A stretch of 64,000 bases of DNA from Escherichia coli (lineage in GTDB: Bacteria; Pseudomonadota; Gammaproteobacteria; Enterobacterales; Enterobacteriaceae): assembly GCF_046105845.1 (NCBI RefSeq), contig NZ_CP151004.1; one strand, given 5' to 3'. The position numbers and the translations under genes are program-made. Shown one piece after another: positions 40,374 to 52,924 of the stretch; within the stretch, counting starts at the first letter, position 1, and every line of letters begins with the position of its first letter. The notes beneath the pieces were generated by a model. The model made no database searches, had not been told where the DNA came from, and worked only from the letters and a program-made list of their open reading frames with translations.

Positions 40374-42509
40374 ATGAAATCAATGAATATTGCCGCCAGT
40401 AGTGAACTGGTATCCCGACTTTCTACTCATCGCCGCGTGGTGGCGTTGGGAGATACTGATTTTACGGACGTCGCGGCAGTCGTCATTACCGCTGCGGATA
40501 GTCGCAGTGGCATTCTTGCGTTGCTTAAGCGCACCGGTTTTCATCTACCGGTGTTTTTGTATTCCGAACATGTTGTTGAATTACCTGCGGGCGTTACGGC
40601 GGTAATCAACGGCAACGAGCAGCAGTGGCTGGAGCTGGAATCCGCAGCCTGTCAGTATGAAGAGAATTTGCTGCCACCGTTTTATGACACGCTGACGCAG
40701 TACGTTGAGATGGGCAACAGCACCTTTGCTTGCCCTGGACATCAACATGGTGCGTTTTTTAAAAAGCATCCTGCCGGACGCCATTTTTACGATTTCTTTG
40801 GTGAGAACGTCTTTCGCGCCGATATGTGTAACGCTGACGTAAAATTGGGCGATCTGCTTATTCATGAAGGATCGGCGAAAGATGCGCAGAAATTCGCAGC
40901 CAAAGTCTTTCATGCCGATAAAACCTATTTTGTACTGAACGGCACATCGGCAGCGAATAAAGTGGTGACGAATGCGCTGTTAACGCGTGGCGATCTGGTG
41001 CTCTTCGACCGTAACAACCATAAGTCGAATCATCACGGCGCGCTGATTCAGGCGGGGGCGACGCCGGTCTATCTGGAAGCTTCACGTAACCCGTTTGGTT
41101 TCATTGGCGGTATTGATGCGCACTGTTTTAATGAAGAGTATCTGCGCCAGCAAATTCGCGACGTTGCGCCAGAAAAAGCTGAGTTGCCGCGCCCGTTTCG
41201 CCTGGCGATTATTCAGTTGGGAACCTATGACGGCACTGTCTATAACGCCCGTCAGGTGGTCGATACCGTTGGGCATCTGTGTGATTACATTCTGTTTGAT
41301 TCCGCATGGGTCGGTTACGAACAGTTTATCCCGATGATGGCGGATAGCTCGCCGCTGCTGTTAGAACTTAACGAAAACGATCCGGGGATCTTTGTGACTC
41401 AGTCGGTGCACAAACAGCAGGCGGGATTCTCACAGACGTCGCAGATCCATAAAAAAGATAACCATATCTGCGGACAGGTGCGTTTTTGCCCGCATAAGCG
41501 GTTGAATAATGCCTTTATGCTCCATGCTTCTACCAGCCCGTTCTATCCGTTGTTTGCCGCGCTGGACGTTAACGCCAAAATTCATGAAGGGGAGAGTGGG
41601 CGTCGGCTGTGGGCTGAGTGTGTAGAGTTGGGGATTGAGTCGCGCAAGGCGATTCTTGCGCGCTGTAAGCTGTTCCGCCCGTTTATCCCGCCCGTTGTTG
41701 ATGGCAAATTGTGGCAGGATTATCCGACATCAGTGTTAGCCAGCGACCGCCGTTTTTTCAGTTTTGAGCCGGGGGCGAAGTGGCACGGCTTTGAAGGATA
41801 TGCCGCGGATCAGTATTTTGTTGATCCGTGCAAGCTGTTACTCACTACACCAGGTATTAATGCCGAAACTGGCGAATATAGCGACTTTGGCGTTCCGGCG
41901 ACGATTCTGGCGCACTATCTGCGTGAGAACGGCATTGTGCCGGAGAAGTGCGATCTCAATTCCATTCTGTTCTTATTAACGCCGGCGGAAAGCCACGAGA
42001 AGCTGGCACAACTGGTGGCGATGCTGGCGCAATTTGAACAGCATATTGAGGATGACTCGCCGCTGGTTGAGGTGTTGCCGAGCGTTTATAACAAATATCC
42101 GGTGCGCTATCGCGACTACACCCTGCGCCAGTTGTGTCAGGAGATGCACGATCTGTATGTCAGTTTCGACGTCAAAGACCTACAAAAAGCGATGTTCCGC
42201 CAGCAGAGTTTCCCGTCAGTGGTGATGAACCCCCAGGACGCGCATAGCGCTTATATTCGCGGTGAAGTGGAGTTGGTGCGGATTCGTGATGCCGAAGGGC
42301 GAATTGCGGCAGAAGGGGCGTTGCCTTATCCACCAGGCGTGCTTTGCGTGGTGCCCGGGGAAGTCTGGGGTGGGGCGGTTCAACGTTATTTCCTTGCGCT
42401 GGAAGAAGGGGTGAATTTGTTGCCGGGATTTTCGCCGGAGCTGCAAGGTGTCTATAGCGAAACCGATGCAGATGGCATGAAACGATTGTACGGTTATGTG
42501 TTGAAGTAA
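40374..42509 (+). CDS. speC: Ornithine decarboxylase, constitutive
   Basis: MKSMNIAASSELVSRLS... matches SpeC; 711 aa from ATG 40374. Confidence 0.95.
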   Translation: MKSMNIAASSELVSRLSTHRRVVALGDTDFTDVAAVVITAADSRSGILALLKRTGFHLPVFLYSEHVVELPAGVTAVINGNEQQWLELESAACQYEENLLPPFYDTLTQYVEMGNSTFACPGHQHGAFFKKHPAGRHFYDFFGENVFRADMCNADVKLGDLLIHEGSAKDAQKFAAKVFHADKTYFVLNGTSAANKVVTNALLTRGDLVLFDRNNHKSNHHGALIQAGATPVYLEASRNPFGFIGGIDAHCFNEEYLRQQIRDVAPEKAELPRPFRLAIIQLGTYDGTVYNARQVVDTVGHLCDYILFDSAWVGYEQFIPMMADSSPLLLELNENDPGIFVTQSVHKQQAGFSQTSQIHKKDNHICGQVRFCPHKRLNNAFMLHASTSPFYPLFAALDVNAKIHEGESGRRLWAECVELGIESRKAILARCKLFRPFIPPVVDGKLWQDYPTSVLASDRRFFSFEPGAKWHGFEGYAADQYFVDPCKLLLTTPGINAETGEYSDFGVPATILAHYLRENGIVPEKCDLNSILFLLTPAESHEKLAQLVAMLAQFEQHIEDDSPLVEVLPSVYNKYPVRYRDYTLRQLCQEMHDLYVSFDVKDLQKAMFRQQSFPSVVMNPQDAHSAYIRGEVELVRIRDAEGRIAAEGALPYPPGVLCVVPGEVWGGAVQRYFLALEEGVNLLPGFSPELQGVYSETDADGMKRLYGYVLK

Positions 42510-42510
42510 G

Positions 42511-42550
42511 AAAAAAAAGGGTCACCTTCTGGCGACCCGTTTTTCTTTGC
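42511..42550. terminator. Bidirectional intrinsic terminator between convergent speC and nupG
   Basis: aaaaaaaa gggtcacc ttct ggcgaccc gtttttcttt. Confidence 0.6.
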
Positions 42551-42554
42551 GTAA

Positions 42555-43811
42555 TTAGTGGCTCACCGTCTGTGTGCCTGTCGGGACACGAACGTGTTTA
42601 TATTTGAACATCGCCATGAACGCGAAGGCCAGAACCACGGAGTAACCAGCGAAAATCAACCATACGGTCTGCCAGTCGGTAATGCCGTTTTGGGTGTACA
42701 TCTCAACAACTTTACCGCTCACGATGCCGCCAAGGATACAGCCGAAGCCGTTAGTCATCATCAGGAACATCCCCTGCGCACTGGCGCGAATTGCCGGGCT
42801 AACTTCTTTTTCGACAAACACCGAACCAGAGATGTTGAAGAAGTCGAATGCGCAACCGTAAACGATCATCGACAGTACCAGCAGCACGGTACCGAACGGA
42901 GTCGGGTCGCCGTAAGCAAACAGCGCAAAACGCAGGATCCACGCCACAATACTGATCATCATTACGTTCTTAATACCGTAGCGGCTTAAGAAGAACGGGA
43001 TAGTCAGAATGAACAGGGTTTCAGAGATCTGCGAAATCGACATGATGATTGACGCATGCTGCACAATAAAGCTGCTGGCAAACATCGGATCTTTGTCGAA
43101 GCTGTGCAGGAAGGTGTTACCGAACATGTTGGTAATCTGCAGTTCCGCGCCCAGCAGCATTGAGAAGATGAAGAAGATTGCCATACGCTTGTTTTTAAAC
43201 AGCGCGAATGCATCGAGGCCCAGCAGGGTTGTCCAGCTCTGATTCGCTTGCTGTTTAGCAACCGGAATATGCGGCAGAGTCAAGGTAAACAGAACCAGAA
43301 TGGCGGAAAGTGCTGCGCCAATATACAGCTGCATGTGGCTTAATTCGAAGCCAGACAGGCTCACCACCCACATTGCCATGATAAAGCCGATGGTGCCCCA
43401 GATACGGATTGGCGGGAAGTCAGTAACGATATCCATCCCGGCATTTTGCAGGCGATAGTAAGAGATGGTGTTGATTAACCCAAGCGTTGGCATATAAGCA
43501 AACGAGTTAATCAATATCACAAGGAACATCGCCTCCGGCGTCGTGACCTGGGCCGCCATGAACAGCGTGATAGCGCCAATGGTGTGGCAAATGGCATAGA
43601 CCCATTTCGCACTTAACCATTTGTCGGCCACAATCCCCAGCAGCGCTGGCATAAAGACCGCGGCGATACCCAGTGAACTATAAACTGCGCCGATAGAAGC
43701 ACCGTCAAACTTCAGGGTAACAAACATATAGGAGCCGAGGGTCGTCAGCCAACTTCCCCACAGACAGAACTGCAGAAAAGAGAGGATTTTCAGCTGCAGC
43801 TTAAGATTCAT
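42555..43811 (-). CDS. nupG: Nucleoside:H+ symporter NupG (MFS)
   Basis: MNLKLQLKILSFLQF...; 418 aa from ATG 43811. Confidence 0.93.
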   Translation of the reverse strand: MNLKLQLKILSFLQFCLWGSWLTTLGSYMFVTLKFDGASIGAVYSSLGIAAVFMPALLGIVADKWLSAKWVYAICHTIGAITLFMAAQVTTPEAMFLVILINSFAYMPTLGLINTISYYRLQNAGMDIVTDFPPIRIWGTIGFIMAMWVVSLSGFELSHMQLYIGAALSAILVLFTLTLPHIPVAKQQANQSWTTLLGLDAFALFKNKRMAIFFIFSMLLGAELQITNMFGNTFLHSFDKDPMFASSFIVQHASIIMSISQISETLFILTIPFFLSRYGIKNVMMISIVAWILRFALFAYGDPTPFGTVLLVLSMIVYGCAFDFFNISGSVFVEKEVSPAIRASAQGMFLMMTNGFGCILGGIVSGKVVEMYTQNGITDWQTVWLIFAGYSVVLAFAFMAMFKYKHVRVPTGTQTVSH

Positions 43812-44012
43812 GTTAATTTCCTCACATCGTGATGCGGATGAGTGTTTGAAAAAGCACATTTGACCGTGCGAGATGATGGGATTCTATCAACTTCGCGGAC
43901 TGGTTTTTTGTTACCTGTGGCAAATAATTGCAAACATTCCCAATTTGCAAAACGAAATTGTGATGTGGATAACATTTTTACCCCTGAGCATCGTCAGGGG
44001 CGGTTAGTGGAA

Positions 44013-45119
<1,107 letters not shown>

Positions 45120-45156
45120 TTATGCAAGTTGCCGGAGGCGTGCTCCGGCACTGTTT

Positions 45157-45435
<279 letters not shown>

Positions 45436-45459
45436 TCATCCTCTTTATCGACTCACGCG

Positions 45460-46512
45460 CTAAACCGGCGCGCCAGTGCGTAACTGCTGTAACAAACGCT
45501 CCACGGGAGCCGCCAGGCCAACTGACGGCGGTTGCGCTAAGTTATACCAGAGCGCATTGCCTTCATCCATGCAGCCGGTGAATGACGACACGGGAAGCCA
45601 CATAGGCACAATATCTAAGTGGAAATGGCTGAAGGTATGCCGAAACGCGGTCAGCTGCGTCAGGTTATCGGCAGAAATCTGTCGTTGCGCCAGCCACTGC
45701 CGCAAACTTTCTTCATCGGCAAACTGCGGGAAACAGTATAAACCGCCCCACAATCCGCTCGGCGGACGCTGCGCCAGCAATACTTCATCTTCGTGCTGTA
45801 ACAGCAAAAAGTAGCCGGTGCGCTCTGGCAGCGTCTGTTTCGGTTTTTTGCCCGGATAAAGCGACCAGCTATTGTTGGCGGCGGCAATACATCCGTTTTG
45901 TAGCGGACAGAGCGAACATTTCGGCTTAGAGCGCGTACAAATCATCGCGCCCAAATCCATCATCGCCTGATTAAACCGTTCCACGCCAACCGCGGGCGTC
46001 ACCTGCTCGCTCAAACTCCATAGTTTATTCTCGACCTCTTTTTTCCCAGGCCAGCCGCTTACAGCATAGCAGCGCGCCAGCACCCGTTTGACGTTACCGT
46101 CGAGAATCGGAAAGTGCTTACCCAGAGAAAGCGAGAGAATCGCGCCTGCGGTGGAACGCCCGACGCCCGGTAACGCCGCGACTTCTTCAAAGGTTTCCGG
46201 GAATTTACCGCCGTGTAAGGTCGCCACTTGTTGTGCCGCTTTATGCAGATTGCGCGCGCGGGCGTAATAGCCAAGCCCGGTCCACAAGTGGAGAACTTCG
46301 TCCAGCGGCGCATTGGCGAGATCGGTCACCGTTGGGAAGCGCGCCATAAAGCGTTCAAAATAGGGGATAACGGTCGCAACCTGAGTTTGTTGCAACATCA
46401 CTTCTGAGAGCCATACTTTGTAGGGCGTCTTGTCAATTTGCCAGGGCAGCGTTTTCCGCCCGTATTTATCGTACCAGTCCAGAGCCTGGGCTGAAAATTG
46501 CGACGCTTGCAT
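45460..46512 (-). CDS. mutY: Adenine DNA glycosylase MutY
   Basis: MQASQFSAQ...; HhH-GPD and 4Fe-4S Cys motifs; 350 aa. Confidence 0.93.
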
Positions 46513-46672
46513 GGTCACCGAATTCACTGTTGTTGGGGGCAAGATTGCAGCACAGCGACGGCAGGGTGTAAACCGGAACTTTCCGCAGCCACGGCCTTAT
46601 CATGCTTGCATCCGGCAACTAACTTTGGATAATGCCCGTTTTCAGAACACTTTCACAAGCGACTAAATCTTT

Positions 46673-47392
46673 ATGAAAAACGACGTCATCTCACCGGAAT
46701 TTGATGAAAACGGCCGCCCGCTGCGCCGTATCCGTAGTTTTGTGCGCCGCCAGGGGCGACTGACCAAAGGCCAGGAACATGCGCTGGAAAACTACTGGCC
46801 GGTGATGGGCGTTGAGTTCAGCGAAGATATGCTGGATTTCCCTGCGCTTTTTGGCCGTGAAGCGCCGGTGACGCTTGAGATTGGTTTCGGCATGGGGGCG
46901 TCGCTGGTGGCAATGGCTAAAGATCGCCCCGAGCAGGACTTCCTCGGCATTGAAGTGCATTCACCGGGCGTTGGTGCGTGCCTGGCTTCTGCGCATGAAG
47001 AGGGCTTAAGCAACCTGCGCGTGATGTGTCACGATGCGGTTGAAGTGCTGCATAAAATGATTCCTGACAATTCATTGCGCATGGTGCAGCTCTTTTTCCC
47101 TGACCCGTGGCACAAAGCGCGCCATAATAAACGCCGTATCGTTCAGGTGCCGTTTGCCGAACTGGTAAAAAGCAAACTGCAACTGGGGGGCGTATTCCAT
47201 ATGGCGACCGACTGGGAACCTTATGCGGAACATATGCTTGAAGTGATGTCTTCTATTGACGGTTATAAAAACCTGTCAGAGAGCAATGATTACGTACCTC
47301 GTCCGGCATCACGTCCGGTGACGAAATTTGAACAACGTGGTCATCGTCTTGGTCACGGAGTATGGGACTTAATGTTCGAGAGGGTGAAATAA
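46673..47392 (+). CDS. trmB: tRNA (guanine46-N7)-methyltransferase
   Basis: 239 aa; sequence matches TrmB. Confidence 0.95.
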
Positions 47393-47718
47393 TGGCAAAG
47401 AACCGTAGCCGTCGTCTGCGTAAAAAAATGCACATCGACGAATTCCAGGAATTAGGATTTTCGGTGGCATGGCGATTCCCGGAAGGTACATCGGAAGAAC
47501 AGATTGATAAAACCGTTGATGACTTTATTAACGAGGTTATCGAACCGAACAAACTGGCCTTTGACGGCAGCGGTTATCTGGCCTGGGAAGGTCTGATCTG
47601 CATGCAGGAAATCGGCAAATGCACCGAAGAACATCAGGCGATTGTGCGTAAGTGGCTGGAAGAGCGCAAACTGGGCGAGGTACGCACCAGCGAACTTTTC
47701 GACGTTTGGTGGGACTAA
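47392..47718 (+). CDS. yggL: DUF469 protein YggL
   Basis: [18 protein letters not shown]...; ATG overlaps trmB stop. Confidence 0.9.
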   Translation: MAKNRSRRLRKKMHIDEFQELGFSVAWRFPEGTSEEQIDKTVDDFINEVIEPNKLAFDGSGYLAWEGLICMQEIGKCTEEHQAIVRKWLEERKLGEVRTSELFDVWWD

Positions 47719-47764
47719 GAAAGCATACGGGCGATGACAAAGTTAAAAAAAGCGCTCGGATAGT

Positions 47765-47867
47765 CCCCTCGCCCCTCCGGGGAGAGGGTTAGGGTGAGGG
47801 GAACAGACCAGCACTGGCGCGATTATTTACCCTCACCCCGACCCTCTCCCTAAAAGGGCGAGGGGGA
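47765..47867. repeat. GC-rich imperfect palindrome (~100 bp): two inverted ~37-nt units separated by ~28 nt
   Basis: cccctcgcccctccggggagagggttagggtgagggg ... ccctcaccccgaccctctccctaaaagggcgaggggg; arms are reverse complements. Confidence 0.5.
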
Positions 47868-47954
47868 AAACCGTGCCCCTTTTGACTTTTAAGCCAGTTT
47901 GTTATCAATCTGGGGCCAGCAAATGCTGGCCTGATTTGTTCTTGAGGGAAGACT

Positions 47955-48674
47955 ATGATGCGCAAAATGCTGCTGGCGGCAGCACTTTCAGTGACGGCAA
48001 TGACCGCTCACGCCGACTACCAGTGCAGCGTCACGCCGCGTGACGATGTGATTGTCAGCCCGCAAACCGTGCAGGTGAAGGGCGAAAACGGCAATCTGGT
48101 GATCACGCCAGACGGCAACGTGATGTATAACGGTAAGCAATATTCCCTGAATGCCGCCCAGCGCGAGCAGGCGAAGGATTATCAGGCTGAACTGCGTAGC
48201 ACGCTGCCGTGGATTGATGAAGGTGCGAAAAGCCGCGTCGAGAAAGCCCGTATTGCGCTGGATAAAATTATCGTTCAGGAGATGGGCGAAAGCAGCAAAA
48301 TGCGCAGCCGTCTGACCAAACTTGATGCGCAGCTGAAAGAGCAGATGAACCGCATTATCGAAACGCGCAGCGATGGCCTGACGTTTCACTATAAAGCCAT
48401 TGATCAGGTTCGCGCCGAAGGCCAGCAATTAGTGAATCAGGCAATGGGCGGAATTTTACAGGACAGCATTAATGAAATGGGCGCGAAAGCGGTGCTGAAA
48501 AGCGGCGGTAACCCATTACAGAATGTGCTGGGAAGCCTGGGCGGTCTGCAATCCTCAATCCAAACCGAATGGAAAAAGCAGGAAAAAGATTTCCAACAGT
48601 TTGGCAAAGATGTTTGTAGCCGCGTTGTGACTCTGGAAGATAGCCGCAAAGCCCTGGTCGGGAATTTAAAATAA
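47955..48674 (+). CDS. yggN: Periplasmic DUF2884 protein YggN
   Basis: 239 aa with signal peptide; K-12 context. Confidence 0.9.
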   Translation: MMRKMLLAAALSVTAMTAHADYQCSVTPRDDVIVSPQTVQVKGENGNLVITPDGNVMYNGKQYSLNAAQREQAKDYQAELRSTLPWIDEGAKSRVEKARIALDKIIVQEMGESSKMRSRLTKLDAQLKEQMNRIIETRSDGLTFHYKAIDQVRAEGQQLVNQAMGGILQDSINEMGAKAVLKSGGNPLQNVLGSLGGLQSSIQTEWKKQEKDFQQFGKDVCSRVVTLEDSRKALVGNLK

Positions 48675-48688
48675 TCCTCTATTTTAAG

Positions 48689-48725
48689 ACGGCATAATAC
48701 TTTTTTATGCCGTTTAATTCTTCGT
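48689..48725 (+). terminator. Probable intrinsic terminator after yggN
   Basis: ggcataa tactttttt atgcc then gtttaattctt. Confidence 0.5.
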
Positions 48726-48849
48726 TTTGTTACCTGCCTCTAACTTTGTAGATCTCCAAAATATATTCACGTTGTAAATTGTTTAACGTCAAATTTCCCA
48801 TACAAAGCTAAGGGATAATGCGTAGCGTTCACGTAACTGGAGGAATGAA

Positions 48850-49896
48850 ATGGAGTTTTTCAAAAAGACGGCACTTGCCGCACTGGTTATGGGTTTTAGT
48901 GGTGCAGCATTGGCATTACCCAATATCACCATTTTAGCAACCGGCGGGACCATTGCCGGTGGTGGTGACTCCGCAACCAAATCTAACTACACAGCGGGTA
49001 AAGTTGGCGTAGAAAATCTGGTTAATGCGGTGCCGCAACTGAAGGACATTGCGAACGTTAAAGGCGAGCAGGTAGTGAATATCGGCTCCCAGGACATGAA
49101 CGATAATGTCTGGCTGACACTGGCGAAAAAAATTAACACCGACTGCGATAAAACCGACGGCTTCGTCATTACCCACGGTACCGACACGATGGAAGAAACC
49201 GCTTACTTCCTCGACCTGACGGTGAAATGCGACAAACCGGTGGTGATGGTCGGCGCAATGCGCCCGTCCACGTCCATGAGCGCAGACGGTCCATTCAACC
49301 TGTATAACGCGGTAGTGACCGCAGCTGATAAAGCCTCCGCTAATCGTGGCGTGCTGGTGGTGATGAACGACACCGTACTGGACGGTCGCGATGTCACCAA
49401 AACCAACACCACCGACGTAGCGACCTTCAAGTCTGTTAACTACGGTCCTCTGGGATACATTCACAACGGTAAGATTGACTACCAACGTACCCCGGCACGT
49501 AAGCACACCAGCGATACGCCGTTCGATATCTCTAAGCTGAATGAGCTGCCGAAAGTCGGCATCGTTTATAACTACGCTAACGCATCCGATCTTCCGGCTA
49601 AAGCACTGGTAGATGCGGGCTATGATGGCATCGTTAGCGCTGGTGTGGGTAATGGTAACCTGTATAAATCCGTGTTCGACACCCTTGCAACCGCCGCGAA
49701 AAACGGCACTGCAGTCGTGCGTTCTTCCCGCGTACCGACGGGCGCTACCACTCAGGATGCCGAAGTGGATGATGCGAAATATGGCTTCGTGGCCTCTGGC
49801 ACGCTGAACCCGCAAAAAGCGCGCGTTCTGCTGCAACTGGCTCTGACGCAAACCAAAGATCCGCAGCAGATCCAGCAGATCTTCAATCAGTACTAA
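48850..49896 (+). CDS. ansB: L-asparaginase 2 (periplasmic)
   Basis: 348 aa; signal peptide; TGGTIAG and HGTDTMEET active-site motifs. Confidence 0.95.
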   Translation: MEFFKKTALAALVMGFSGAALALPNITILATGGTIAGGGDSATKSNYTAGKVGVENLVNAVPQLKDIANVKGEQVVNIGSQDMNDNVWLTLAKKINTDCDKTDGFVITHGTDTMEETAYFLDLTVKCDKPVVMVGAMRPSTSMSADGPFNLYNAVVTAADKASANRGVLVVMNDTVLDGRDVTKTNTTDVATFKSVNYGPLGYIHNGKIDYQRTPARKHTSDTPFDISKLNELPKVGIVYNYANASDLPAKALVDAGYDGIVSAGVGNGNLYKSVFDTLATAAKNGTAVVRSSRVPTGATTQDAEVDDAKYGFVASGTLNPQKARVLLQLALTQTKDPQQIQQIFNQY

Positions 49897-49903
49897 TCAC
49901 CTC

Positions 49904-49930
49904 GCCCCGGTAACGTGCCGGGGCTTTTTC
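49904..49930 (+). terminator. Rho-independent terminator after ansB
   Basis: gccccgg taacgtg ccggggc ttttt. Confidence 0.7.
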
Positions 49931-50012
49931 ACTTCAGACTTACGTCCATTGCCAATTTTCATTACCCTGATGATAATCACTGGAATAAATTATTCCGCGA
50001 GAGGGTTTTCGG

Positions 50013-51020
50013 GTGAAAAAGCAATGGATTGTTGGCACGGCGCTGCTTATGTTGATGACTGGTAATGTCTGGGCAGATGGCGAACCGCCAACTGAAAATA
50101 TCTTAAAAGATCAATTCAAAAAGCAGTATCACGGCATTCTCAAGCTTGATGCTATCACCTTAAAAAATCTTGATGCTAAGGGTAATCAGGCCACCTGGTC
50201 AGCGGAAGGCGATGTCTCTTCCAGTGACGATCTCTATACCTGGGTCGGTCAGTTGGCAGATTACGAACTGCTCGAACAGACCTGGACGAAAGATAAACCG
50301 GTAAAATTCTCGGCGATGTTAACCAGTAAAGGAACGCCCGCGTCTGGCTGGTCGGTGAACTTTTACTCTTTTCAGGCGGCAGCCAGCGATCGTGGACGGG
50401 TGGTCGACGATATCAAAACGAATAATAAATATCTGATCGTGAATAGCGAAGATTTCAATTATCGCTTTAGTCAGCTTGAGACTGCGTTGAATACCCAGAA
50501 GAACTCGATTCCTGCGCTGGAAAAGGAAGTGAAAGCGCTTGATAAGCAAATGGTGGCGGCGCAGAAAGCAGCGGATGCATATTGGGGAAAAGATGCAAAC
50601 GGTAAGCAAATGACCCGCGAAGACGCATTTAAAAAAATTCACCAACAGCGTGATGAGTTTAATAAACAGAACGATAGCGAGGCGTTCGCGATTAAATATG
50701 ACAAAGAGGTTTATCAACCGGCGATTGCGGCATGTCATAAACAGAGTGCAGAGTGTTATGAAGTGCCGATTCAGCAGAAGCGAGAATTCGATATCAACGA
50801 ACAACGGCGACAGACTTTTCTGCAATCACAAAAAATTAGCCGTAAATTGCAGGATGACTGGATAACGCTCGAAAAAGGGCAATATCCGTTAACGATGAAA
50901 GTTTCAGAAATAAACAGTAAAAAAGTCGCGATTTTGATGAAAATTGACGATATCAATCAGGCTAATGAACGCTGGAAAAAAGATACCGAACAATTGCGGC
51001 GCAATGGAGTGATTAAGTAA
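50013..51020 (+). CDS. yggM: Secreted DUF1202 protein YggM
   Basis: 335 aa; signal peptide; K-12 context. Confidence 0.85.
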   Translation: MKKQWIVGTALLMLMTGNVWADGEPPTENILKDQFKKQYHGILKLDAITLKNLDAKGNQATWSAEGDVSSSDDLYTWVGQLADYELLEQTWTKDKPVKFSAMLTSKGTPASGWSVNFYSFQAAASDRGRVVDDIKTNNKYLIVNSEDFNYRFSQLETALNTQKNSIPALEKEVKALDKQMVAAQKAADAYWGKDANGKQMTREDAFKKIHQQRDEFNKQNDSEAFAIKYDKEVYQPAIAACHKQSAECYEVPIQQKREFDINEQRRQTFLQSQKISRKLQDDWITLEKGQYPLTMKVSEINSKKVAILMKIDDINQANERWKKDTEQLRRNGVIK

Positions 51021-51038
51021 CTCATGTTAAGTGCCTTT

Positions 51039-51075
51039 GCCGGATAATATAAAAAGTTATCCGGCAAATTATTTT
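51039..51075. terminator. Bidirectional terminator between yggM and the TRAP permease gene
   Basis: gccggataa tataaaaag ttatccggc flanked by A/T runs. Confidence 0.6.
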
Positions 51076-52377
51076 TTACATTAGCCCTAGTAGCTGTGGA
51101 ATGAACAAGGATATTTGCGGGATGTAAGTGATCATCATCAACGCGATTAACAATGCGGCATAAAATGGCAGCAATGGTTTGATCAAATGTTGAATCTTCA
51201 CACCTGAAATAGAACAACCAACAAATAGCGCACTACCCACCGGCGGTGTTAACAGCCCAATACAAAGGTTGGCCACCATCATAATACCGAAATGTACCGG
51301 ATCCATTCCCAGCTCTTGTGCAATCGGCAAGAAGATTGGTGTGAAGATTAGTACAGCCGGTGTCATGTCCATAAAGATGCCGACAATTAATAAGACGATA
51401 TTAATCAGCAGCAATATGACCAGTGGGTTATCAGAAATCCCCATCAACGCGTCGCTGATCATATAAGGAATATCAGCATTGGTCATTGCCCAGGACATGC
51501 CCACGGAAAAACCGATCAACAGTAATACAATCGAAGTGGTAACAACCGATTCCAGAATCAGTTTGGGTAAATCGCGCCATTTTACTTCCCGGTAAATCAG
51601 CACCGAGAGGATAAATGTGTAGACAACGGCAATTGCTGACGCTTCAGTTGCGGTAAAAATGCCGCCCAGAATGCCGCCCATTACAATGAACACCAGAAGC
51701 AAACTTGGTAAGGCATCCAGAAACGCTTTACATGCCTGAGCAAAGGTTGCTCTTTCTGAAAGTGGGTAGCCACGGCGTTTAGCAATAATGCCGCAGACTA
51801 TCATTACCGCGAGACCCATTAAGATCCCTGGCAAATATCCCGCCATAAATAGCGATGCTACAGAAACGCCGCCAGCTGTCAGGGAAAACACAATTAACAC
51901 GTTTGAGGGCGGTATCAGTAATCCAGTAATACAAGATGAGACGTTTACAGCGGTAGAAAATGCCGGATCATAACCTTCTTTGGTCTGAATGGGATTCAGT
52001 GTGCCACCAACGGCAGCAGCTGCCGCAACAGCTGAACCAGAAATGGAACCAAACATCATATTCGCCAGGACGTTCACATGACCAAGCGAACCAGGAACGC
52101 GGCCAACCATTACCTGGGCGAGGTTAATCAAACGTATCGCAATACCGCCGCTGTTCATCAGCGTTCCGGCAAAGATGAAAAAGGGGATTGCTAATAGGGC
52201 AAAGTTATCCAGTCCATTAGCCAGTCGCTGCGAAACAGTGATTGCCGCGATATCCTAGGGAAACATCAACAGCATTGAAGCTACAGTGGCAATACCGATT
52301 GAGAACGAAATGGGCACACCAATAAAGACCAGCACAAAAAAACAGCCAAACAGTGTAAGCGCGATATAACTATCCAT
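51076..52377 (-). pseudogene. TRAP transporter large permease (DctM family) interrupted by in-frame TAG at codon 41
   Basis: ATG 52377..52375 overlaps dctQ stop (TAATG); MDSYIALTLFGCFFVLVFIGVPISFSIGIATVASMLLMFP-TAG(52257..52255)-DIAAITVSQRLANGLDNFALLAIPFFIFAGTLMNSGGI... continues in frame into ORF 51076..52158. Confidence 0.7.
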
Positions 52378-52889
52378 TAACTGGCCTCCTGCGCAGGTTG
52401 TTTCAGTTGTTGAATGCTTTGATTAATAAAACACAAGGCATAAAACATCATCACCAATCCACTTAATGGCAGAATGATATATACGTATCCCATCGGTATT
52501 TGCATCGCGGCAGATACCTGTGATGTTGCCAGTGTTTTATCAATTAATTTCAGGCCACCAGTCACAATGACCGAACCGGCAAAACCTAAAATAAGAACGT
52601 TAATGACTATACTAAGAAGTAATTGCTTGCGCTTATTCAGGGCGAGAGCAAATAAATCGATAGAGAGATGTCGCTGCGCGCCGACGGTATATGCAGCACC
52701 TAATAATCCTACCCAGATCATCAAAAAGCGTGCCAGCTCATCGGTTAATGTACTTGGCTGGTTAAGTACGTAGCGGCTAAATACTTGCCAGACTACGCAT
52801 ACAACCAGAGCAAGCATTACGGCGACAGAAAACGCGGCAATGACGCGGTCTACCGCAAGTTTCAGGCGGTTAAATATCATTGTAAGCAT
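52377..52889 (-). CDS. TRAP transporter small permease (DctQ family)
   Basis: 170 aa, four predicted TM segments; between DctP-like and DctM-like genes. Confidence 0.8.
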   Translation of the reverse strand: MLTMIFNRLKLAVDRVIAAFSVAVMLALVVCVVWQVFSRYVLNQPSTLTDELARFLMIWVGLLGAAYTVGAQRHLSIDLFALALNKRKQLLLSIVINVLILGFAGSVIVTGGLKLIDKTLATSQVSAAMQIPMGYVYIILPLSGLVMMFYALCFINQSIQQLKQPAQEAS

Positions 52890-52924
52890 CCTGGAAAATC
52901 AGGGCCAGAGACTGGCCCGAAATA

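Follow-up and report, generated by a model that had tools for sequence, protein, structure and literature searches.

Between yggL and yggN, the 64,000-nucleotide stretch of Escherichia coli DNA analysed here (the window) carries a large GC-rich imperfect palindrome at positions 47765-47867, and the question that it raises is what this element is, whether it serves the two genes beside it and how it came to lie there. An earlier note, made from the letters alone, had described two inverted units unlike REP, had assigned them to a dispersed intergenic repeat family and had suggested a role as terminator, mRNA stabiliser or protein-binding site. The sequence is as that note described it, and its position between the two genes agrees with the list of open reading frames and with the annotation of the identical locus in strains VR50 and K-12. 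The palindrome is a known E. coli repeat, formed by two BoxC units facing each other. This paired copy is most likely a structural passenger rather than a dedicated regulator, a reading to which we give a probability of slightly less than four in five.

Identity of the palindrome

The family to which the palindrome belongs has been described four times, as BoxC, as PIT elements, as the intrastrand-triplex motifs TMECO and as the G-quadruplex motifs HPG1 and HPG2. BoxC was first noticed in the 1990s; it was later rediscovered as PIT, standing for 'potential intrastrand triplex', and then named TMECO (Holder et al. 2015, PMC4666352), and a second group arrived independently at its units as putative G-quadruplex motifs (Kaplan et al. 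2016, PMC5100583). What the earlier note presented as an unfamiliar family had already been described and studied biophysically. The TMECO consensus reads CCCTCNCCC-N3-6-GGGNGAGGG-N3-GGGNGAGGG (Holder et al. 2015, PMC4666352), and the two inverted units proposed from the letters match it exactly, one on each strand (Table 1), with 0.00 matches expected from shuffled sequences. In the whole window, the published family pattern and the 21-mer GGAGAGGGTTAGGGTGAGGGG each occur twice, once per strand and both times within the palindrome, where shuffles again lead one to expect 0.00.

The unit on the plus strand is letter for letter K-12 TMECO no. 23, of the class 'A mm' (type A with one mismatched triplet), and it is laid out as a C-stem CCCTCGCCC, a CTCCG loop, a G-stem GGGAGAGGG, a TTA loop and a second G-stem GGGTGAGGG. 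Its partner on the minus strand, which is type B-like, reads CCCTCGCCC TTTTA GGGAGAGGG TCG GGGTGAGGG and resembles K-12 TMECO nos. 10 and 12 in the table of Holder et al. (2015), with TCG in loop 2 as in nos. 12 and 20. The type labels follow this loop, which is TTA in type A and CCG or TCG in type B. Five of the 18 K-12 sites hold two inverted units, always one of type A and one of type B (Holder et al. 2015, PMC4666352). The window pair obeys this rule, with TTA in loop 2 of one unit and TCG in that of the other, on opposite strands. As for the G-quadruplex motifs, the HPG1 21-mer GGGAGAGGGTTAGGGTGAGGG is found without change at 47780-47800 in the A unit, and the B unit equals HPG2 (GGGAGAGGGCCGGGGTGAGGG) except for one loop base, the middle loop being TC instead of CC; the arrangement typical of the motif, an HPG1 or HPG2 21-mer behind a C-rich block, is present. 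On all the sequence-level comparisons made, the copy counts as a member of the family under each of its four names, triplex folding being in vitro data from others.

The element is neither a REP nor an ERIC, it is not a canonical terminator and it corresponds to no Rfam family. Its dissimilarity to REP is borne out by alignment with the K-12 allele, which is unrelated sequence across the core, and the REP consensus palindrome is not found in the core of the window copy. A search of Rfam 15 with this copy returned only sub-threshold models of eukaryotic microRNA hairpins (20-29 bits vs thresholds of 58-105), and no Rfam family lies on BoxC at ten K-12 BoxC loci. The sub-threshold Rfam matches (microRNA hairpins, an antizyme frameshift element) were rejected as generic matches to a long hairpin. 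In the K-12 tldD-yhdP spacer (locus L096, 2130-2381), three tandem Rfam matches to naRNA4 (REP325) lie about 1.6 kb from a BoxC unit; naRNA4 is a known REP-derived nucleoid-associated RNA, unrelated to BoxC.

From paired units to a 180-nt composite

Five BoxC pairs were retrieved from K-12, and the spacers of all but the lldD-trmL pair were aligned with that of the window. Those of fepB-entC, gcvP-ygfF and alx-sstT, of 28-29 nt and of the form GAACAGRCCAGCACTGGYGCGAA.ATTTA, share both length and sequence with the 29-nt spacer of the window. The spacer of the hrpB-mrcB pair, of 18 nt, can be aligned with it only in part, and lldD-trmL has the opposite arrangement of units. The spacer shared among K-12 pairs argues that most pairs are copies of one composite and not two chance neighbours.

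Comparison of 17 K-12 units and their flanks reveals a nested design, in which a core of 34-37 nt stands behind a conserved box that reads GYGCNCGGNCAGTC in type A units and GCACSGTTTTCY in those of type B. In the window, the type A box together with the core and a GAACAG tail makes up the classical BoxC of about 56 bp, a size given in a published table, and both box and tail are common to K-12 type A units; likewise, the type B box of the window is common to K-12 type B units. Further out, a long left arm (GATGACAAAGT..AAAAA) precedes the A unit in the window and at gcvP-ygfF, fimH-gntP, alx-sstT and fepB-entC, and a right terminus (TTTGTTAKCAATCT) follows the B unit in the window and at gcvP-ygfF, with a related remnant at adk-hemH. 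The true element is longer than the span first reported, being a palindromic insertion of 180 nt whose two halves can be aligned in inverted orientation as far as the termini (Table 1). Its closest paralogue is the BoxC pair of gcvP-ygfF, with 94% identity in the core and 85% from end to end (157/185). The element stands in the 3' untranslated region of yggL, 47 nt past the stop codon of this gene and 90 nt ahead of the start codon of yggN, whose ribosome-binding site (GAGGGA) is at 47944.

Table 1. Features of the yggL-yggN region, with positions in the window
Feature	Position	Strand	Basis or remark
yggL CDS, upstream gene	47392..47718	+	ORF list; identical locus as annotated in VR50 and K-12
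Ancestral 5' part of the spacer, GAAAGCATACGGG	47719..47731	+	Also in Citrobacter, Salmonella, Klebsiella, Kosakonia and Enterobacter spacers without insertion
Whole 180-nt palindromic composite insertion, CGATGACAAA...TTTGTTATCAATCT	47732..47911	.	None in non-Escherichia genera
Left arm, GATGACAAAGTT AAAAAAA	47732..47751	+	Same arm before type A units at four K-12 loci
Conserved type A 5' box, GCGCTCGGATAGTC	47752..47765	+	Found upstream of 11/11 type A units compared
BoxC/TMECO unit, type A with one mismatched triplet	47766..47800	+	Pattern match; Holder 2015 Table 1; HPG1 sequence
29-nt spacer between units, GAACAGACCAGCACTGGCGCGATTATTTA, loop of the long hairpin	47801..47829	.	Conserved in three K-12 pairs
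BoxC/TMECO unit, type B-like, inverted	47830..47864	-	Pattern match; Holder 2015 Table 1
Right arm: type B 5' box (minus strand, GGCACGGTTTTCC) and terminus TTTGTTATCAATCT	47865..47911	+	Locus comparison
Terminator-like hairpin and T-tail, GGGGCCAGCAAATGCTGGCC TGATTTGTTCTT	47912..47943	+	Outside the repeat; position conserved across genera without insertion
yggN CDS, downstream gene	47955..48674	+	ORF list; annotation

Copies, alleles and history of the site

That the palindrome belongs to a dispersed intergenic family, as had been proposed, is clear from a similarity search with its 113-nt core, which recovered copies in 5418 of 5426 complete E. coli genomes, at a median of 17 and a maximum of 30 places per genome. 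A single-copy sequence, the outcome named in the earlier note as speaking against a family, is not what these genomes hold. Almost all the places are chromosomal (83552 vs 37 on plasmids). From one locus to another the units vary little in sequence (Holder et al. 2015, PMC4666352), a degree of conservation that is not obviously expected of junk and implies recent spread or constraint.

At yggL-yggN itself the picture is different, BoxC being present in only 64 of the 5425 E. coli genomes that have the locus (about 1%). The remaining E. coli sampled have a K-12-like spacer, 53 bp shorter, with a REP doublet; in K-12 (locus L002, 1625-1807) this spacer carries two REP units, of the GCCGGATGCGGCG...CGCCTTATCCGGCCTAC consensus type. 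The yggL region was compared among loci from 80 species, which do not include E. fergusonii or the cryptic clades. In Citrobacter, Salmonella, Klebsiella, Kosakonia, Enterobacter and most other non-Escherichia genera the spacer is 45-56 nt long and free of insertion, and in it a short leader is followed by a T-tailed GC hairpin and by the ribosome-binding site of yggN. Every Escherichia sampled (E. coli, E. albertii, E. whittamii and two further species) has an insertion between CATACGGG and GGGGCCAGC, and its core is a REP doublet in K-12, E. albertii, E. whittamii and Escherichia sp. E1V33. The presence of REP in all other Escherichia sampled argues that REP is old at this site.

The two alleles have their ends in common. 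On the left they share CGATGACAAA plus about 10 partly matching bases, and on the right TTTGTTATCAATCT. Compared with the BoxC arms of gcvP-ygfF, where the right terminus reads TTTGTTAGCAATCT, the first 20 nt or so of the left arm and the right terminus are kept in the K-12 REP allele to a degree that 2 and 20 of 20000 shuffles, respectively, score as well. Given these shared ends, the REP allele looks like a BoxC composite in which the hairpin core has been replaced. The flanks tell of no foreign origin: those of the window locus are equally similar to strains with either allele, some REP-allele strains being 100% identical in the flanks, and import of foreign DNA with divergent flanks is not supported. 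Recent gene conversion from another E. coli copy was discarded as the source of the BoxC allele, the best match of the right arm elsewhere in the 5426 genomes being 82% and the gcvP-ygfF paralogue being no closer than the 94% and 85% given above. In a metagenome scan for a donor of the BoxC arms none was found, all five contigs being the same E. coli locus. The BoxC allele lies on at least three flanking haplotypes (window, VR50 and Z1323HEC0462) and could have spread by recombination, an observation with which selection is also compatible.

Two other loci bear on the exchange of cores. At gcvP-ygfF, the BoxC composite is missing together with the whole of ygfF from about 2400 of 5425 E. coli genomes, among them O157:H7 and ATCC 25922. 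The breakpoint of homology lies exactly at the left end of the composite (loci L001 and L005 against L102 and L103), and the missing block is replaced by a 120-nt segment with a REP. The K-12 fimH-gntP spacer (locus L095, 312-553) holds a single type A unit with the long left arm, followed by AAAGTGCGCTTTGTTTA and then by a REP, with no B unit, and is a second junction between BoxC and REP. A string very like the one at fimH-gntP, AAAGTGCGCTTTGT, follows the gcvP terminator in the strains without the BoxC composite (L102 and L103).

Since both BoxC-type termini survive in the REP allele, no donor of the BoxC arms turned up at other E. coli loci or among the metagenome contigs, and a REP also abuts a BoxC unit at fimH-gntP, these comparisons allow a reading that we hold tentatively and at somewhat less than even odds: the 180-nt composite would have been inserted once, just upstream of the yggL terminator, in the ancestor of Escherichia, and the REP doublet would be a secondary replacement of its core. 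If this were the case, BoxC and REP hairpins would be exchangeable cassettes within one set of insertion ends, and the rare BoxC allele would be either a surviving ancestral form or a re-introduction. The rare allele would also point to replacement directed by the hairpin, for example through template switching at stalled forks or through REP-mobilising enzymes acting on BoxC stems.

The empty site of the other genera invites a further account, in which the 180-nt composite would be a non-autonomous, MITE-like mobile element moved by a transposase in trans, the palindrome being its two inverted halves. The insertion is sharply delimited, its ends form imperfect inverted repeats (GATGACAAA vs GATAACAAA), the same arms recur at several loci, and the flanking G-run (GGG) could be a 3-bp target-site duplication. 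However, this putative duplication is indistinguishable from the native G-run, the arms resemble each other weakly, with 156 of 5000 shuffles reaching their score, and neither other E. coli loci nor the metagenome scan yielded a donor for them. Moreover, no transposase partner is known, and the family has been reported not to be tied to phages, plasmids or transposons (Holder et al. 2015, PMC4666352). We consider this origin rather unlikely.

Whatever the history of the composite, intergenic repeats have landed at the yggL-yggN site more than once. In Escherichia sp. MOD1-EC7003 (locus L010, from about 1527 onward) the REP doublet has grown into a REP array of more than 330 nt, making the spacer much longer. 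Between the yggL stop codon and the hairpin, Kluyvera sichuanensis carries one copy and a metagenome-assembled Pluralibacter genome two tandem copies of ERIC/IRU-like elements, and Entomohabitans has a different insert of 190 nt after yggL.

Some observations on individual records may be added. In VR50, a strain with the BoxC allele, an IS1 truncates yggM (DUF1202), two genes downstream of yggN (locus L088, 10274-11396). Positions 38000-58000 of the window reach at most 98.6% identity to any of the 5426 complete RefSeq E. coli genomes, and the window strain thus has no close representative among them; some E. coli strains nevertheless match the 541 bp around the element at 100% identity. A record labelled Chryseobacterium sp. 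18061 contains a YggL 93% identical to that of E. coli, with an Enterobacteriaceae-type yggN adjoining, and is probably mislabelled or contaminated.

Folding, termination and possible function

Inside 47765-47867 the two units pair as an interrupted stem. The outer helix joins CCCCTCGCCC (47765-47774) to GGGCGAGGGG (47855-47864), the middle one joins GGGGAGAGGGTT (47779-47790) to GACCCTCTCCCT (47840-47851) with one G-U wobble included, and the inner one joins GGGTGAGGG (47792-47800) to CCCTCACCC (47830-47838). This amounts to 11+12+9 = 32 pairs, so the stem of about 40 bp announced by the earlier note is reached only when the pairs of the flanks are counted, AAAAGCGCTCGG / CCGTGCCCCTTTT providing about 10 more. 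Folding of the RNA, which that note had recommended, gives a very stable long hairpin on both strands, at -81.7 kcal/mol for the plus strand (z -6.64) and -89.3 kcal/mol for the minus strand (z -7.58), with 0 of 200 shuffles as stable in either case. For the 103-nt core as single-stranded DNA the folding energy is -35.2 kcal/mol (z -6.25), again with no shuffle as stable. The whole yggL-yggN spacer folds as RNA into one long hairpin followed by a separate small one. Since inverted copies of a single repeat are bound to pair with each other, covariation in the long stem is uninformative on function.

The suggestion that the palindrome works as a terminator is not supported. The element offers no GC-rich stem directly before a T-run, and a scan for the terminator consensus calls only the hairpin further downstream (47913-47932) and not the BoxC element. 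PIT elements were without promoter or terminator activity in published tests (Holder et al. 2015, PMC4666352), and 99% of E. coli have no BoxC at this place. The separate hairpin with a T-tail that lies behind the insertion, directly before the ribosome-binding site of yggN, keeps its place and sequence in many genera of Enterobacteriaceae and accounts there for most of a spacer of about 50 nt; leaky termination or attenuation between the two genes is a possible role for it.

A broader proposal would make the paired hairpin a functional RNA element of the trmB-yggL transcript, either as a terminator or as a barrier to 3' exonucleases. It is consistent with the great stability of the RNA stem, with its place on the coding strand 47 nt behind the yggL stop codon and with the AAAAAAA on its 5' side and CCCCTTTTGACTTTT on its 3' side. 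The REP allele too supplies stable hairpins at this position and, as such a role has been proposed for REP, the REP doublet could stand in for BoxC elsewhere. However, the T-run does not come directly behind the core stem, and the conserved terminator-like hairpin starts 1 nt past the end of the insertion; in the other genera, which function with their short spacer, no structure but this one is present. The published PIT tests likewise weigh against termination; they may have used single units, and the paired 32-bp hairpin flanked by an A-run and a T-run may behave differently. On balance this role is improbable. An effect of the long RNA hairpin on the stability of yggL mRNA is possible.

At the DNA level, isolated units form very stable intrastrand structures that melt at 70-82 C, and NMR favours the triplex over the G-quadruplex; oligonucleotides of the class 'A mm' melt at 74 C, with CD and NMR evidence, and a polymerase stop was seen in primer extension at a TMECO (Holder et al. 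2015, PMC4666352). For HPG1 and HPG2, ion-dependent structural changes have been published, and their authors favour a putative switch between G-quadruplex and hairpin that they suggest to be regulatory (Kaplan et al. 2016, PMC5100583). The G-quadruplex is not adopted here as the main structure, since the published NMR favours the triplex for the isolated oligonucleotide. From such data one could derive a switch between duplex, hairpin/triplex and G-quadruplex that would be read by a protein and would affect supercoiling or the expression of neighbours. Each unit does have four G-tracts with 3-nt loops, triplex formation in vitro and ion-dependent structural changes are on record, and the units are strongly conserved across loci. 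On the other hand, in vivo DMS footprinting detected no triplex protection, and the genes next to TMECOs show no functional bias and lie at no set distance from the units (Holder et al. 2015, PMC4666352). A protein that binds the element is not known, and the element is absent from this site in 99% of strains, all of which makes a switch highly improbable here. A chance GC-rich palindrome without relatives can be dismissed, as shuffled sequences never reach the fold energy or the motif and tens of thousands of copies exist in E. coli.

The preferred reading, a paired BoxC copy carried as a structural passenger, starts from the observation that the composite lies in the only expendable part of the spacer, between the stop codon of yggL and the conserved hairpin, leaving both genes and their signals intact. 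It is supported by the ERIC-like elements that occupy this stretch in other genera, by the exchange of the core for REP and by the genera whose 45-56-nt spacer has the hairpin and the ribosome-binding site alone. As single-stranded DNA, each unit would fold back into a hairpin plus triplex, or into the alternative G-quadruplex, and the two units together would form a long hairpin or cruciform. Such a structure would be expected to stall polymerases, making the site prone to deletion and replacement. This instability would fit the distribution of alleles, with about 1% BoxC and the rest having a REP doublet inside the same insertion ends. It is also suggested by gcvP-ygfF, where the deletion boundary of some 2400 genomes falls exactly at the end of the paralogous element. 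Excess variation between strains has been reported around TMECO loci (Holder et al. 2015, PMC4666352). As RNA, the composite would add a very stable stem-loop to the 3' untranslated region of yggL, much as the REP doublet would. The present analysis shows the family identity, the architecture, the copy number and the distribution of alleles, and the in vitro structures and the negative promoter and terminator tests come from published work; that the copy is neutral, that instability led to the swap of alleles and that RNA is affected in any way are inferences.

Comparison with known systems

BoxC is listed at about 56 bp with 22-32 copies in K-12 (Bergler 1992; Bachellier, both as quoted in citing papers). 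The window copy shares with it the core sequence, the conserved 5' box, the intergenic position, the GC-rich composition and the imperfect dyad, and its units align with the founding copy next to fabI (envM), which is K-12 unit no. 9. It differs in being a paired form with long arms, of about 180 nt rather than 56, and in lying at a locus where K-12 has REP. With the PIT and TMECO elements (Hoyne and Maher 2000-2002; Holder 2015) it has in common the consensus on both strands, the inverted pair of types A-mm and B and, as published for the family, a locus that varies between strains; the long arms and the swap of a BoxC core for REP are not described in the accessible text of Holder et al. (2015). 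HPG1 and HPG2 (Kaplan et al. 2016, PMC5100583) are represented by the exact HPG1 of the A unit and by the pairing of units on opposite strands, but Kaplan et al. read these motifs as a regulatory switch, whereas nothing at yggL-yggN supports regulation.

ERIC/IRU and MITE-like repeats are also imperfect palindromes of about 130-180 nt found between a stop codon and a terminator, but they are unrelated in sequence, the BoxC composite being built of two triplex-type units. REP and BIME resemble BoxC as short GC-rich intergenic palindromes in 3' untranslated regions, and a REP doublet occupies the very same insertion. Their sequence is nevertheless unrelated to the three-block C/G/G layout of BoxC, which has no known RAYT-type transposase or association with gyrase or IHF.

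The element itself is already known, no dedicated function has been shown for its family, and there is no need to invoke a new family or regulator. The 180-nt composite, the ends that it shares with the REP allele and its distribution as a rare allele may be previously undescribed, as far as the accessible parts of the cited papers go. The yggL-yggN site offers a clear natural case of the instability between strains that has been reported near BoxC/TMECO elements, and its three states, the empty site of other genera, the BoxC allele and the REP allele, are convenient for tests of 3'-UTR stability. The shared ends suggest that BoxC pairs are the cores of a longer composite in which REP and BoxC are interchangeable, an exchange that bears on how BoxC-type repeats spread.
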